A DNA stretch of 64,000 nucleotides from Escherichia phage slur07: sequence record NC_028780.1; one strand, written 5' to 3'. A program made the translations under genes and the position numbers. Below the pieces are notes generated by a model. That model saw nothing but the letters and a program-made list of their open reading frames with translations, did not search any database and had not been told where the DNA came from. Shown piece after piece: positions 2,515 through 50,173 of this stretch (positions within the stretch are counted from its first letter, which is position 1; each line of letters begins with the position of its first letter).

Positions 2515-3755
<1,241 letters not shown>

Positions 3756-3813: not shown

Positions 3814-4230
3814 ATGACTCGTATCAATTTAACACTTGTTTCTGAACTGACCGACCAACATCTTATGGCTGAGTATCGTGAATTGCCGCGTGTTTTTGGT
3901 ATAGTTCGTAAACATGCGGCAAATGGTAAGCGGGTTAAAGATTTTAAAATATCTTCCGAGTTTATTTTAGGCTCTGGTCATGTTACGTTCTTTTACGATA
4001 AGTTAGAATTTTTGCGAAAGCGTCAATCAGACATTATAACGGAATGCTTAAAACGTGGGTTTAGTATAAAAGATACTGAAGTTCCTGACATCAGCGATAT
4101 TCCAGCAGAATGGAAAAATGATTATAATCCATGCAAATCAGCTATTAAATTGAGTCAACAACGACTCGATGAAAAAATTTTAATGAAGCCACACTGGTAC
4201 AAGTATTACGGCAAAAATATTTACATTTAA
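3814..4230 (+). CDS. denV: endonuclease V (pyrimidine-dimer DNA glycosylase)
   Basis: 138 aa starting [12 protein letters not shown]...; matches T4 DenV length and sequence as recalled. Confidence 0.9.
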
Positions 4231-4239
4231 AGGAAACAT

Positions 4240-4713
4240 ATGAAAACATATCAAGAATTTATTACTGAAGCAGCTATTAATTCTCAAATTATTGCTGAAT
4301 CTTTTACTGATCTTTTGAAATTTAAAAAAGGTCAAAAAATCACTGCTGTATTGGATGATGGTACAGAAGTTGAGATGGATGTACAGGGATATAATTATGC
4401 AGTAGATGGAAAACTGTATAATAAATCTCATGCTAAATTTGATTCATTTGACGACTTTGTTAATACAGTTGAAGATGAAAAAACTCGTAGATCCATTGCA
4501 ACTGGTGATGCTAAGGTTCTTATGGCACACGGCCATGAACGCATTCGCGCTAAGCAGAATAAAATGGGCGAAGATAATTTCGCATTAGTTGGTTATCAAT
4601 CTGGTAAACAAACTTATGGTTATCAGCGTACTGCTACCATGTATAACAAAAATGGTAAAATCGCTTTCGTGAATAGTAAAGGTTCTGTTCAGTACGTCAA
4701 ATCATTCAAATAA
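4240..4713 (+). CDS. internal protein with capsid-targeting sequence
   Basis: 157 aa, N-terminus MKTYQEFITEAAINSQ (T4 IP-type CTS, ITE cleavage motif). Confidence 0.75.
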   Translation: MKTYQEFITEAAINSQIIAESFTDLLKFKKGQKITAVLDDGTEVEMDVQGYNYAVDGKLYNKSHAKFDSFDDFVNTVEDEKTRRSIATGDAKVLMAHGHERIRAKQNKMGEDNFALVGYQSGKQTYGYQRTATMYNKNGKIAFVNSKGSVQYVKSFK

Positions 4714-10272: not shown

Positions 10273-10280
10273 TATAAATA
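10273..10280 (+). promoter_or_regulatory. T4 late promoter box TATAAATA
   Basis: perfect TATAAATA 25 nt upstream of ATG 10306. Confidence 0.5.
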
Positions 10281-46325: not shown

Positions 46326-47753
46326 GTGGTAGAAATTATTCTTTCTCATCTCATATTTGATCAAGCTTATTTTTCAAAAGTTTGGCCATATATGGATTCA
46401 GAATATTTTGAAAGTGGTCCAGCTAAAAATACATTCAAATTAATTAAATCTCATGTTAATGAGTACCATAGCGTTCCATCTATTAATGCGTTAAATGTTG
46501 CATTAGAAAATAGTTCATTTACTGAAACAGAATATTCTGGTGTAAAAACACTTATTTCAAAACTGGCTGATTCTCCGGAAGACCACAGCTGGTTAGTAAA
46601 AGAAACAGAAAAATATGTTCAGCAAAGGGCGATGTTTAATGCTACGTCTAAAATAATCGAAATTCAAACTAATGCTGAGCTTCCTCCGGAAAAACGAAAT
46701 AAGAAAATGCCGGACGTTGGTGCTATTCCTGACATTATGCGACAAGCATTATCAATTTCATTTGATAGTTACGTTGGTCATGATTGGATGGATGACTACG
46801 AAGCACGTTGGCTATCTTATATGAATAAAGCTCGTAAGGTTCCATTTAAACTCAGAATTCTAAACAAAATTACTAAAGGCGGAGCTGAGACTGGAACACT
46901 GAACGTTTTAATGGCTGGAGTTAACGTTGGTAAGTCATTAGGATTGTGTTCATTGGCAGCAGATTATTTGCAGCTCGGACATAATGTTCTTTACATTTCC
47001 ATGGAAATGGCAGAAGAAGTCTGTGCTAAGCGTATTGATGCTAATATGCTTGATGTTTCTCTTGATGATATTGATGATGGGCATATTTCTTACGCTGAAT
47101 ATAAAGGAAAAATGGAAAAATGGCGTGAGAAATCTACCCTTGGTCGTTTAATCGTTAAGCAATATCCTACTGGTGGAGCAGACGCTAATACATTTCGATC
47201 ACTTTTAAATGAATTAAAGCTCAAGAAGAATTTTGTTCCAACAATCATTATTGTCGACTATCTAGGTATTTGTAAATCTTGCCGCATCAGAGTTTACTCA
47301 GAAAATAGTTACACAACTGTTAAAGCTATCGCAGAGGAATTGCGTGCTCTGGCTGTTGAAACCGAAACTGTTCTTTGGACTGCAGCACAGGTCGGTAAAC
47401 AAGCTTGGGACTCTTCCGATGTTAACATGAGCGATATTGCAGAATCTGCTGGTCTTCCAGCAACAGCTGATTTTATGCTTGCGGTCATTGAAACCGAGGA
47501 GCTAGCAGCTGCTGAACAACAACTCATTAAGCAAATCAAATCACGATATGGCGATAAGAATAAGTGGAATAAGTTTTTAATGGGTGTTCAAAAGGGAAAT
47601 CAGAAATGGGTAGAAATTGAACAAGATTCTACTCCAACTGAAGTGAGTGAAGTAGCAGGTTCACAACAGATTCAGGCTGAACAGAATCGCTATCAAAGAA
47701 ACGAATCAGCTCGAGCTCAGTTAGATGCTTTGGCAAATGAATTAAAATTTTAG
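46326..47753 (+). CDS. 41: replicative DNA helicase
   Basis: 475 aa, GTG start; Walker A GVNVGKS; matches T4 gp41. Confidence 0.95.
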   Translation: MVEIILSHLIFDQAYFSKVWPYMDSEYFESGPAKNTFKLIKSHVNEYHSVPSINALNVALENSSFTETEYSGVKTLISKLADSPEDHSWLVKETEKYVQQRAMFNATSKIIEIQTNAELPPEKRNKKMPDVGAIPDIMRQALSISFDSYVGHDWMDDYEARWLSYMNKARKVPFKLRILNKITKGGAETGTLNVLMAGVNVGKSLGLCSLAADYLQLGHNVLYISMEMAEEVCAKRIDANMLDVSLDDIDDGHISYAEYKGKMEKWREKSTLGRLIVKQYPTGGADANTFRSLLNELKLKKNFVPTIIIVDYLGICKSCRIRVYSENSYTTVKAIAEELRALAVETETVLWTAAQVGKQAWDSSDVNMSDIAESAGLPATADFMLAVIETEELAAAEQQLIKQIKSRYGDKNKWNKFLMGVQKGNQKWVEIEQDSTPTEVSEVAGSQQIQAEQNRYQRNESARAQLDALANELKF

Positions 47754-47782
47754 TTTACAAGCTGACAAGACTATGGTATAGT
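47753..47782 (+). promoter_or_regulatory. T4-type early promoter
   Basis: GTTTAC 47753-47758 overlapping gene 41 stop, TATAGT 47777-47782. Confidence 0.55.
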
Positions 47783-47811
47783 AGTCTTGTTGGTTAAATG
47801 AGGAGATTGTT

Positions 47812-47994
47812 ATGGAATTGGTAAAGGTAGTTTTTATGGGGTGGTTTAAGAATGAAAGCATGTTTACTAAAGAAATCACAATGATGAAAGATGACGTTCA
47901 ATGGGCTACTACTCAATATGCTGAAGTTAATAAAGCATTAGTTGAAGCTTTCATTGATGACAAGAAAGTATGTGAAGTGGATTGCCGAGGATAA
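47812..47994 (+). CDS. dmd: Dmd antitoxin (inhibitor of RnlA/LsoA)
   Basis: 60 aa; size and position next to 41 match T4 Dmd. Confidence 0.8.
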   Translation: MELVKVVFMGWFKNESMFTKEITMMKDDVQWATTQYAEVNKALVEAFIDDKKVCEVDCRG

Positions 47995-47995
47995 T

Positions 47996-48253
47996 ATGCA
48001 TATTGTTTTATTTAAACCTACTCCGTATAACGTCAGGAAAAATACACAATTTAAAGCACTTATTGCAGATACGTGGGAATTGGTGTTAGATATTCCAGCA
48101 GAAGAAAGTCCTCCATTTGGTCGAGTGGAATTTATTAAGTTTGCTGTACGTCCTACGAAGCGACAGATTCGTCAGTGTAAAAGGTATTTTCGTAAGATCG
48201 TTAAGCTAGAGAAACAGTTTGTAACATGTGATTACGCAGAAGTTTTAAAATAA
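47996..48253 (+). CDS. hypothetical small protein (T4 61.4 position)
   Basis: 85 aa from ATG 47996. Confidence 0.5.
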   Translation: MHIVLFKPTPYNVRKNTQFKALIADTWELVLDIPAEESPPFGRVEFIKFAVRPTKRQIRQCKRYFRKIVKLEKQFVTCDYAEVLK

Positions 48254-48255
48254 CT

Positions 48256-48285
48256 GTTTACTTTTGTTGGAAATTGAGATACTAT
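48256..48285 (+). promoter_or_regulatory. T4-type early promoter
   Basis: GTTTAC 48256-48261, TACTAT 48280-48285. Confidence 0.55.
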
Positions 48286-48313
48286 ATAAACATAAACTAC
48301 TGAGGAGATTATC

Positions 48314-48607
48314 ATGAAAAAATTTATCTTTGCCACAATTTTTGCTTTAGCTTCTTGTGCTGCTCAGCCTGCTATGGCAGGTTATGATAAAGATTTGTGC
48401 GAATGGTCTATGACTGCTGATCAGACTGAGGTTGAAACTCAAATTGAAGCAGATATTATGAATATCGTTGAGCGCGATCGCCCTGAAATGAAAGCTGAAG
48501 TGCAAAAACAGCTTAAGTCTGGTGGTGTAATGCAGTATAATTATGTTCTGTATTGCGATAAAAACTTTAATAATAAAAATATCATCGCTGAAGTGGTAGG
48601 TGAGTAA
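48314..48607 (+). CDS. sp: spackle periplasmic protein
   Basis: 97 aa with signal peptide; size and position match T4 Sp. Confidence 0.75.
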   Translation: MKKFIFATIFALASCAAQPAMAGYDKDLCEWSMTADQTEVETQIEADIMNIVERDRPEMKAEVQKQLKSGGVMQYNYVLYCDKNFNNKNIIAEVVGE

Positions 48608-48619
48608 TTAGAGGTTAAT

Positions 48620-48976
48620 ATGTATAGTTCTGAATTTTCATATTTAAAAATGGAAAAAATTTCATACGATTTTATAGATGAAAAGGTTTATTACAGTTTC
48701 CATGAACCACGTTTTAATAGTGAGGTTGGGTTTATTGTAGTAAAAGATAATTTTATTTTAAAAATATATTCAGCATTAAAGGATTTTCATTACGAAAATA
48801 TTAACCTAAAATTTAATAAAGAAAACGTTCGTAATTGCGCAGTAACAATTACAGGAAATAAAGGTACATGTGTTATGCTATCTGATGAAATTAATGATTT
48901 GCTAAATGATGCAGAAAATATTACTGCACCATCTATTGATGACCAAATTTTTAATGCTTTTATGAATAGAGGTTAA
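48620..48976 (+). CDS. hypothetical protein (T4 61.2 position)
   Basis: 118-aa ORF. Confidence 0.5.
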   Translation: MYSSEFSYLKMEKISYDFIDEKVYYSFHEPRFNSEVGFIVVKDNFILKIYSALKDFHYENINLKFNKENVRNCAVTITGNKGTCVMLSDEINDLLNDAENITAPSIDDQIFNAFMNRG

Positions 48977-48977
48977 T

Positions 48978-49142
48978 ATGAAAACATATAAAGAATTTAT
49001 CAAAGAAGATATGGTAGCTGGAGATTCAGGTGGTAATCCTGAAAATATCTCTACTGGAACAACGTCAGGCGCTGTAGTAAATAAAGGTCCTGAACAGATT
49101 CCTAAAAAGAAAAAAGAGGAATCTAAAGAAAAAGAAGAGTAA
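48978..49142 (+). CDS. small protein with internal-protein-type capsid-targeting sequence
   Basis: MKTYKEFIKE N-terminus (IKE cleavage motif), Gly/Ser-rich middle, Lys/Glu-rich tail. Confidence 0.45.
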   Translation: MKTYKEFIKEDMVAGDSGGNPENISTGTTSGAVVNKGPEQIPKKKKEESKEKEE

Positions 49143-49144
49143 AA

Positions 49145-50173
49145 ATGTCATCAATACCTTGGATTGATAATGAGTTTGCATACCGTGCATTAGCTCATTT
49201 ACCTAAATTCACACAAGTAAATAATAGTTCAACTTTTAAATTACGGTTTAGATGTCCTGTTTGTGGAGATTCAAAAACCGACCAGAATAAAGCTCGTGGA
49301 TGGTATTATGGTGATAATAATGAAGGAAATATTCATTGTTATAACTGTAACTATCATGCACCAATCGGAATATATTTAAAGGAGTTTGAACCTGATTTAT
49401 ATCGTGAGTATATCTTTGAAATAAGAAAAGAAAAAGGTAAAAGTCGTCCAGTAGAAAAACCTAAAGAACTTCCTAAACAACCTGAGAAGAAAATAATTAA
49501 ATCTCTTCCGTCATGTGTTAGATTAGATAAACTGGCGGAAGACCATCCAATTATAAAATATGTAAAAGCTCGTTGTATTCCAAAGGATAAATGGAAATAT
49601 CTTTGGTTTACAACCGAATGGCCTAAATTAGTTAATAGTATAGCACCCGGAACATATAAAAAGGAAATACCTGAGCCTCGTCTTGTTATTCCAATTTATA
49701 ATGCTAATGGAAAAGCTGAGTCTTTTCAAGGACGTGCATTAAAGAAAGATGCTCCTCAAAAATATATAACCATCAAAGCTTATCCTGAGGCAACAAAAAT
49801 CTATGGAGTCGAACGAGTTAAAGATGGTGATGTATATGTTCTAGAAGGACCTATAGATTCACTTTTTATTGAAAATGGTATAGCTATTACGGGTGGTCAA
49901 TTAGACCTAGAAGTTGTTCCATTTAAAGATAGACGTGTGTGGGTTTTAGATAATGAACCTCGTCATCCTGACACTATTAAGCGAATGACTAAATTAGTTG
50001 ATGCAGGAGAAAGGGTTATGTTTTGGGATAAATCTCCCTGGAAATCAAAAGATGTTAATGATATGATTAGAAAGGAAGGTGCAACCCCTGAACAAATTAT
50101 GGAATATATGAAAAATAATATTGCCCAGGGGTTGATGGCTAAAATGCGGTTATCTAAATATGCTAAGATTTAA
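49145..50173 (+). CDS. 61: DNA primase
   Basis: 342 aa; zinc ribbon CPVCGDS...CYNCNYH; matches T4 gp61. Confidence 0.93.
   Translation: MSSIPWIDNEFAYRALAHLPKFTQVNNSSTFKLRFRCPVCGDSKTDQNKARGWYYGDNNEGNIHCYNCNYHAPIGIYLKEFEPDLYREYIFEIRKEKGKSRPVEKPKELPKQPEKKIIKSLPSCVRLDKLAEDHPIIKYVKARCIPKDKWKYLWFTTEWPKLVNSIAPGTYKKEIPEPRLVIPIYNANGKAESFQGRALKKDAPQKYITIKAYPEATKIYGVERVKDGDVYVLEGPIDSLFIENGIAITGGQLDLEVVPFKDRRVWVLDNEPRHPDTIKRMTKLVDAGERVMFWDKSPWKSKDVNDMIRKEGATPEQIMEYMKNNIAQGLMAKMRLSKYAKI

Follow-up and report, generated by a model that had tools for sequence, protein, structure and literature searches.

Gene 61.1 of T-even phages encodes a small conserved protein with a capsid-targeting-type start and homology to the gp23 cleavage junction

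Introduction

The capsid targeting sequence (CTS) of phage T4 is the decapeptide MKTYQEFIAE (PMC8442874), which is by itself enough to load foreign proteins into heads (PMC9026906, PMC8442874). Amber-suppression work, summarised in PMC9026906, indicated that residues 4 and 7 of the CTS act mainly in targeting and residues 8 and 10 in processing. The T4 internal proteins are highly basic (PMC8442874). The prohead protease gp21 removes a 65-residue propeptide from the capsid protein gp23, the cut being made after E65 (PMC9546572). Before expansion, the N-terminal region of gp23 has no ordered structure; it is found on the inside of the shell, in probable contact with the scaffolding core (PMC9546572). 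In the mature head, the first 25 residues of gp23* form the 'N-fist', which touches four neighbouring subunits and helps to form the Soc site (PMC9958956). The sorting of proteins into the scaffolding core of T4 continues to be called mysterious (PMC9958956). The subject here is an open reading frame (ORF) of 54 amino acids (aa), gene 61.1, located just before the primase gene 61 of Escherichia phage slur07 (NC_028780.1), whose product begins with a CTS-type decapeptide and continues with a segment homologous to the start of gp23*. The window means the whole stretch of 64,000 nucleotides (nt) analysed from this phage, and not a single feature; the genome is of T4 type (Tequatrovirus) and its orientation in the window is opposite to that of the T4 map.

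Identity of the 54-aa ORF

The gene and the segments of its product are the following.

48978..49142, + strand: gene 61.1 orthologue, 54 aa plus stop (52/54 identical to T4 gp61.1; phrog_1823)
48978..49007, + strand: residues 1-10, MKTYKEFIKE, CTS-type decapeptide ending in the gp21-type motif I-x-E
49008..49103, + strand: residues 11-42, DMVAGDSGGNPENISTGTTSGAVVNKGPEQIP, homologue of the first residues of mature gp23* (N-fist)
49104..49139, + strand: residues 43-54, KKKKEESKEKEE, Lys-rich charged tail, with purine-rich codons just before the gene 61 start
Residues 11-54: predicted cleaved product DMVAGDSGGNPENISIGTTSGAVVNK, with Asp11 as its N-terminus

The sequence-only reading had presented this ORF as an extra mini-protein of the locus. 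It is not an extra gene, because it is the orthologue of T4 gp61.1 (NP_049649, UniProt P39228; MKTFKEFIKEDMVAGDSGGNPENISIGTTSGAVVNKGPEQIPKKKKEESKEKEE). Both proteins have the same length and are identical at 52 of 54 positions, the sole differences being Tyr4/Phe and Thr26/Ile (window/T4). As in T4, the ORF lies between the helicase gene 41 and the primase gene 61, 2 nt before the latter. The T4 protein has a CTS-like start too (MKTFKEFIKE), the window having the canonical CTS residue Tyr4 where T4 gp61.1 has Phe4. The phrog_1823 profile matches the 54-aa protein over its full length (residues 1-54 to profile positions 1-54, E-value (E) 7e-34), while Pfam scans of this protein, of 15 relatives and of three long forms (see below) gave no meaningful family. 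As a member of the gp61.1 family, the ORF itself was already known, and the gene has been present in databases from the sequencing of T4 onwards. In the literature search, gp61.1 was found listed as 'conserved hypothetical' only, and no paper was found on a resemblance to gp23; furthermore, it does not appear in the core or quasicore gene lists.

A CTS-like N-terminus

The decapeptide MKTYKEFIKE is identical to the T4 CTS at 8 of 10 positions, including Tyr4, Phe7, Ile8 and Glu10, and it ends in a sequence that reads as a gp21 cleavage-type motif (Ile/Leu-x-Glu), I8-K9-E10. The proposal that the ORF starts with a full CTS carrying an IKE motif was thus borne out at the level of sequence, all four key residues being identical. 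In the six-frame translation of the window, chance would give 3.8e-5 occurrences of the pattern MKT[YFW]x[ED]F[ILVM]xE, and three are observed; apart from that in 61.1, they mark the genuine internal-protein genes that start at 3474 and 4240. Over its first 30 nt, 61.1 is identical to one of these two genes at 26/30 positions and to the other at 24/30, and the two genes match each other at 23/30; that is, the codon-level similarity of 61.1 to the two internal-protein genes equals that between them.

A CTS lacking in the T4 orthologue and absent in relatives would have refuted the sequence-only reading, but T4 and more than 500 relatives have it; in tblastn, residues 1-42 were found at an identity of at least 95% in 500 phage records. 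Many divergent short forms of the protein begin with MK[TS]Fx[ED][FL], and the CTS-like start is therefore not a T-even peculiarity. As far as its sequence goes, the upstream side of the T-even gp61.1 site is indistinguishable from a functional CTS.

Homology to the gp23 cleavage junction and N-fist

The middle of the protein, which had been described as low-complexity Gly/Ser, turns out to be its most conserved part, with 18 invariant columns in the Gly/Ser region among 16 relatives, and to be homologous to the mature gp23 N-terminus. BLASTP aligned residues 2-38 of the 54-aa protein with residues 57-93 of T4 gp23, ungapped, with 43% identity and an E of 1e-8. When the family profile was compared with 177,635 distinct PDB sequences, gp23 was the sole match even up to E 10 (6uzc 58-94, E 1.3e-5). 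In the same way, hhalign gave a probability of 96% (E 4e-9) for the long-form family profile against gp23 1-151. None of 20,000 shuffled sequences reached the observed score of 80 (shuffles 27.7 +/- 3.9, maximum 55). Chance, low complexity or a non-gene are ruled out as explanations by this shuffle test together with the deep conservation. The identity of the protein as gp61.1 and its homology to gp23 can be taken as nearly certain.

With a slash for the cut, the alignment places I8-K9-E10/D11 of gp61.1 on L63-T64-E65/A66 of gp23, and residues 11-38 on residues 66-93 of gp23*. The motif common to both proteins is GDxGxNxxNIxxGxTSGAVxxxGP. On the upstream side, residues 56-65 of gp23 (AQAFGSFLTE) have an aromatic residue, a Phe, an aliphatic residue and a Glu at the four key positions of the CTS. 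This likeness of ten residues between the CTS and gp23 56-65 is not statistically significant when taken alone, and the putative link between them comes from the ungapped extension of the significant alignment.

The likeness to gp23 (PDB 6uzc, 5vf3, 7vs5) is thus one of local homology to residues 57-93, with the cleavage Glu aligned. Unlike gp23, gp61.1 has no HK97-fold body (54 aa vs 521 aa) and ends in a Lys-rich tail. No trace of the capsid-protein body (P, A and I domains, E loop) was found in it, nor any Pfam match, and gp61.1 is not a capsid protein. UniRef and GenBank records give family members names such as 'major capsid protein', 'major capsid domain-containing protein' or 'capsid protein', and the member from phage Moon is annotated 'gp23-like'. 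As gp61.1 lacks the HK97-fold body of gp23, the capsid-type database names are misleading; they are an annotation error that arose from the local likeness to the N-terminus of gp23 and has since spread.

Co-variation between 61.1 and the gp23 of the same phage was looked for in T4, Aes012, AbaSI3 and G2248. There was no excess for own pairs, with 14-20/37 identical residues everywhere, and the identity matrix therefore gives no evidence for lineage-specific co-evolution or gene conversion.

Comparison with genuine internal head proteins

Two internal-protein genes of the window served as comparators.

3474..3755, + strand: internal head protein gene, 93 aa (phrog_3499 'internal head protein', E 1.2e-46), just after the lysozyme gene e
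4240..4713, + strand: internal virion protein gene, 157 aa, MKTYQEFITE... (phrog_3155 'internal virion protein', E 1.1e-101), after denV

All the features of the targeting-type decapeptide of IPI, IPII and IPIII are found in gp61.1, namely an aromatic residue at position 4, Phe7 and an I-x-E motif. Beyond the CTS, however, the protein belongs to no internal-protein family, the only match being to phrog_5341 (E 0.076, residues 1-25). In addition, gp61.1 is highly conserved whereas internal proteins are hypervariable (PMC9026906), and its gene is not in the e/denV loci. The late-promoter motifs TATAAATA lie at 2955 and 2968, ahead of the internal-protein genes of the window; unlike those genes, 61.1 has no late promoter nearby and its T4 transcript is early, which gives no sign of synthesis at the time of prohead assembly. 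The predicted cargo of gp61.1 would be acidic, unlike the highly basic internal proteins of T4. The 93-aa internal protein of the window would also be non-basic after its predicted cleavage (isoelectric point (pI) 6.3).

The internal-protein region of the window consists of e (2989-3477), the 93-aa gene (3474-3755), denV (about 3814-4230) and the 157-aa gene (4240-4713), and the order in the T4 counterpart is e - ipIII - ipII - denV. Both internal-protein alleles of the window are in families other than T4 ipII/ipIII.

Tail, predicted structure and expression signals

The Lys-rich tail is present in all relatives and its sequence is variable. In some close relatives, which have the T6-type 61.1 (62 aa), a frameshift in the A-run that encodes KKKK leads to another Lys-rich tail, KKKKRNLKKKKSKNVINTLD, which must run past the start of gene 61; the sequence of the tail is therefore not tightly constrained. 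In the window, the junction between 61.1 and gene 61 reads GAAGAGTAAAAATG.

The AlphaFold2 model of the short form has a mean predicted local distance difference test score (pLDDT) of 61 and contains short helices only, the best supported at residues 4-11; from this model, the short form alone is likely to be disordered. A cut after Glu10 would give a predicted mature peptide of 44 residues and 4.6 kDa, with a pI of 5.0.

A MotA-box-like middle-promoter match (AATGCTTTT, with TAATAT 12 nt downstream) occupies 48953-48979 and overlaps the start codon of 61.1; it is a consensus match only, and such matches number six on the + strand of the window vs two on the - strand. MotA-type transcripts from this site would start inside 61.1 and would serve the primase gene 61 only.

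The gp61.1 family across T4-like phages

Among the relatives examined, 61.1 always lies between the helicase gene 41 and the primase gene 61. This synteny was seen in Aeromonas, Acinetobacter, Vibrio, Krischvirus, Moonvirus and Mosigvirus phages, and conservation of the protein extends to phages whose DNA is fully diverged. In all of them the primase gene follows 61.1 directly or after one or two small ORFs; for example, Moon, PhAPEC2 and nt-1 have a gap of about 36-80 nt between 61.1 and 61, whereas Aes012 and G2248 have one or two ORFs there. Furthermore, Aeromonas phage Aes012 and Vibrio phage nt-1 keep the order 41 - 61.1 - 61 without dmd, tifA, sp or adfA. Thus 61.1 is an old member of this block of replication genes, and the anti-toxin genes are later insertions beside it. 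The sequence-only reading had made the 54-aa gene part of a counter-defence island; it is instead an older conserved gene that persists where these neighbours are absent. In Aes012, the gene just upstream of gene 41 is gene 40, which carries the annotation of a head-vertex assembly chaperone, and a head-assembly gene is therefore already found beside the replication genes.

Two types of family members can be distinguished. Short forms (50-90 aa) are found in Tequatrovirus, Krischvirus, Aeromonas phages and many marine contigs, and long forms (about 155 aa, phrog_2086) in RB69-type phages, Moon, and Acinetobacter and Vibrio phages. Both share the module made of the junction, the N-fist-like segment and the basic tail (...LPLFE/DMVAGD... 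in long forms) and the same place between 41 and 61, but long forms have a conserved helical N-domain of about 100 residues instead of the 10-residue CTS-like start. The part that precedes the conserved cut site thus ranges from 10 to about 110 residues. The site itself is kept: a Glu immediately precedes the [MV][VT]AGD core in 171 of the 179 cluster representatives, and 160 of these 171 have I, L, V or M two residues earlier (P3). Some relatives read IKE/AEVAGD or FLKE/AEVSGD, as gp23 does.

AlphaFold2 predicts the N-domain of the long form as helical, with a pLDDT of about 80-89 for residues 10-70. A Foldseek search with the model of this domain against PDB gave no match at E below 5. The BFVD structure search with the long form returned uncharacterised relatives only, including viral proteins of 387-913 aa with 29-35% identity, which could be fusions to larger cargo. 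These larger proteins have the accessions A0A411BBR2, A0A1B1IT15, A0A6J7WVK5 and A0A7S5R3P1. A search for fusions with the long-form profile gave only forms of 144-180 aa among the best 120 of 225 matches. Methylophilales phage Melnitz-2 encodes a 203-aa protein (2992-3603 of the sequence examined) with the long-form N-domain, an acidic C-terminus and no N-fist-like module, which makes the N-domain a separable module. In RB69 (NC_004928 17470-17783), the annotation splits the long-form 61.1 into two ORFs, RB69ORF032c and gp61.1, and its match likewise falls into two pieces, whereas the RB69-type relatives listed with it have one 155-aa ORF. The split in RB69 may be a frameshift or a sequencing error in the reference.

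Proposed role and alternatives

Judged from its sequence, gp61.1 appears to be a protein bearing a CTS and a gp21 site, whose 'cargo' copies the N-terminus of the capsid protein itself. Its most likely role, which can only be advanced tentatively and with confidence that falls somewhat short of even, would be that of a prohead-targeted substrate of the gp21 protease. The protein, a miniature version of the gp23 maturation junction standing by itself, is a protease-type cleavage site with residues of the gp23-site type on both sides, an architecture that is kept while the part N-terminal to it varies from 10 to 110 residues. The junction module would bind the prohead partner that also receives the gp23 N-terminus and the internal-protein CTS; this partner is presumably the scaffolding core. 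gp21 would then cut gp61.1 after Glu10 and free the 44-residue, 4.6-kDa peptide, probably disordered when alone, which would either stay in the head and enter the next host with the DNA or play its part in assembly only and leave with the scaffold fragments.

Several observations weigh against such a role. gp61.1 is not mentioned in the T4 head mass-spectrometry paper or in its supplements examined, and it was not found among the proteins listed in the T4 infection proteome table. Small scaffold fragments escape from the prohead through openings of 14-17 Å (PMC9546572), and the gp61.1 peptide might therefore not be retained. In T4, the 61.1 transcript falls in the early class (PMC9697503 supplement), and no late-promoter motif TATAAATA was found near 61.1 on the coding strand, the nearest being at 10273 and 51348; gp61.1 made early may persist until prohead assembly. 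The long-form relatives have no N-terminal CTS, an Asp at P1' (D11) is not among the gp21 sites that could be documented, and the predicted cargo is small (4.6 kDa) and acidic (pI 5.0), whereas the T4 internal proteins are described as basic.

The expression data fit another possibility, which nevertheless appears unlikely, namely that gp61.1 is made early and never packaged, its role being that of a cytoplasmic decoy or competitor for some factor that recognises the gp23 N-terminal region. Candidate targets would be a host capsid sensor (e.g., the EF-Tu/Gol/Lit exclusion route), gp21 before assembly, or a chaperone. Besides the early transcription and the lack of a late promoter nearby, the location of 61.1 beside proven anti-toxin genes in T-even phages points in this direction, and its disorder when alone, as predicted by the model, would suit a peptide mimic. 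The gp23 segment that gp61.1 copies is strongly conserved and probably ends where the Gol region begins. The complex of EF-Tu with a 100-residue N-terminal fragment of gp23 is more stable than that with the 29-residue Gol peptide (PMC3014915). However, the 61.1 family ranges from coliphages to phages of Vibrio, Aeromonas and Acinetobacter, keeps its position throughout and does not depend on the presence of the island genes. Counter-defence genes tend to be patchy, and so broad and fixed a conservation would therefore be unusual for one of them. Moreover, a pure decoy does not explain the strict conservation of the [ILVM]-x-E protease-type site, and 61.1 shows no lineage-specific co-variation with the gp23 of its own phage. 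It is more doubtful still that gp61.1 is an ancient, superfamily-wide mimic of the gp23 junction and N-fist which competes for the partner of the gp23 N-terminus. If this were true, gp61.1 could blunt the host sensing of nascent gp23 (e.g., by the EF-Tu/Gol/Lit route) or, alternatively, fill N-fist docking or scaffold sites that gp23 cannot, e.g., around the gp24 or portal vertices. The CTS of internal proteins would itself copy the P-side of the gp23 cleavage site, and the long-unknown CTS receptor would be whatever binds gp23 residues 56-65.

The CTS match and its I-K-E motif, joined to the ability of the CTS alone to load foreign proteins (PMC9026906, PMC8442874) and to a Lys-rich tail that could hold DNA, would also suit a cargo of the internal-protein type, packaged in many copies, retained and delivered together with the DNA to act at once against host defences. 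Such a cargo, whose packaging and injection the sequence-only reading had proposed, is improbable: every point raised against a prohead-targeted substrate applies here too, the high conservation of gp61.1 is at odds with the hypervariability of internal proteins, the part that is conserved looks more like a structural element of the capsid than like an enzyme inhibitor, and a peptide of 4.6 kDa that is acidic and disordered seems poorly suited to being retained or to acting as an effector. A leader function, in which the 61.1 frame would mainly couple or tune the expression of the primase gene 61 and the peptide would have no function, seems very unlikely. It would account for the 61.1 stop codon 2 nt before the ATG of gene 61, the purine-rich tail codons just upstream, the variable tail with a frameshift tolerated in T6-type variants, and the MotA-box-like middle promoter that overlaps the 61.1 start; but the 18 invariant core residues, the conservation of the protein where the DNA has fully diverged and the variable spacing to gene 61 in relatives all speak for a functional peptide rather than a leader.

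Whatever its role, gp61.1 joins a CTS-type peptide and the residues that follow the gp23 cut in one small, conserved and probably non-essential protein. It thereby links the internal-protein tag and the capsid maturation junction, which are usually treated separately, and offers a simple object for testing what the CTS binds and what gp21 recognises. If gp61.1 is loaded into the prohead as a gp21 substrate, it would be a new conserved head component overlooked by decades of work on T4. If it is not loaded, it would be a conserved early mimic of a capsid segment, the target of which would be worth finding. In practice, the automatic 'major capsid protein' names of the family are wrong and, as set out below, the '61.2' of the window should not be assumed to be a working AdfA.

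The interval between genes 41 and 61

In T4, the gene order is 41 - dmd - 61.4 - sp - 61.2 - 61.1 - 61, and the order in the window corresponds to it. A megablast search with 47700-49200 matched 508 phage records, nearly all at 95-99% identity. The features that surround 61.1 are the following.

46326-47753, + strand: helicase gene 41; the interval begins at its stop codon
47754..47782, + strand: promoter-like site of the early sigma-70 type, TTTACA-17-TATAGT with TG, before dmd (10/12 positions; a consensus match only)
47812..47994, + strand: dmd, 60 aa, inhibitor of the RnlA toxin (Pfam Dmd E 9.3e-46; 59/60 identical to T4 Dmd)
47996..48253, + strand: 61.4 / tifA, 85 aa, ATG start, ToxN inhibitor in T4 (84/85 identical to T4 gp61.4; Pfam DUF7279)
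48314..48607, + strand: sp, spackle periplasmic protein, 97 aa (Pfam T4_Spackle E 1.3e-44; 96/97 identical to T4)
48620..48976, + strand: 118-aa AdfA-type short paralogue (phrog_4122), the last codons of which carry the GAGG ribosome-binding site of 61.1
49145..50173, + strand: gene 61, DNA primase, 342 aa, which starts 2 nt after 61.1; conserved downstream neighbour

The five ORFs that the sequence-only reading had assigned to 47753-49142 are all at these places on the + strand. Its identification of dmd, TifA and spackle was confirmed by near-identity to the characterised T4 proteins (59/60, 84/85 and 96/97) and by the Pfam families Dmd and T4_Spackle. An early T4 promoter lies upstream of dmd-tifA, and T4 gp61.4 has been renamed TifA, an inhibitor of ToxN (PMC9391042). 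A 103-aa version of 61.4 with a TTG start (47942-48253), overlapping the end of dmd, was rejected, the T4-matching product being the 85-aa ORF with an ATG start at 47996. The minus-strand ORFs of the interval (33-52 aa) have no support.

The 118-aa ORF had been equated with gp61.2, named in T4 AdfA, for anti-DarT factor (PMC9391042). This assignment stands for the C-terminal half of AdfA and fails for the full-length protein. Residues 22-118 of the ORF match positions 113-211 of the Pfam AdfA profile, which has 211 positions, with 32.2 bits for a cut-off of 27. In the same way, the ORF has 34% identity to the C-terminal residues 109-208 of the 208-aa T4 gp61.2. Neither a full-length match to the profile nor orthology to T4 gp61.2 was found. 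Citrobacter phage PhiZZ6, the closest relative (99.1%), carries a 208-aa AdfA-type gene and the 118-aa gene in tandem, at 1108-2092 of the PhiZZ6 sequence examined. Since PhiZZ6 has both genes side by side, the window is a locus without a full-length AdfA. The sequence comparisons identify the 118-aa ORF as a short paralogue of the C-terminal half of AdfA and not the full-length 61.2/AdfA. The window having the short paralogue only, anti-DarT activity is not to be assumed for it.

The final 14 residues (SIDDQIFNAFMNRG) are identical between the 118-aa ORF and T4 gp61.2, and the same last 14 residues are common to both members of the PhiZZ6 tandem pair. This shared end is a likely joint for the recombinational deletion of either copy. 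The codons of the shared end also contain the GAGG ribosome-binding site of 61.1.

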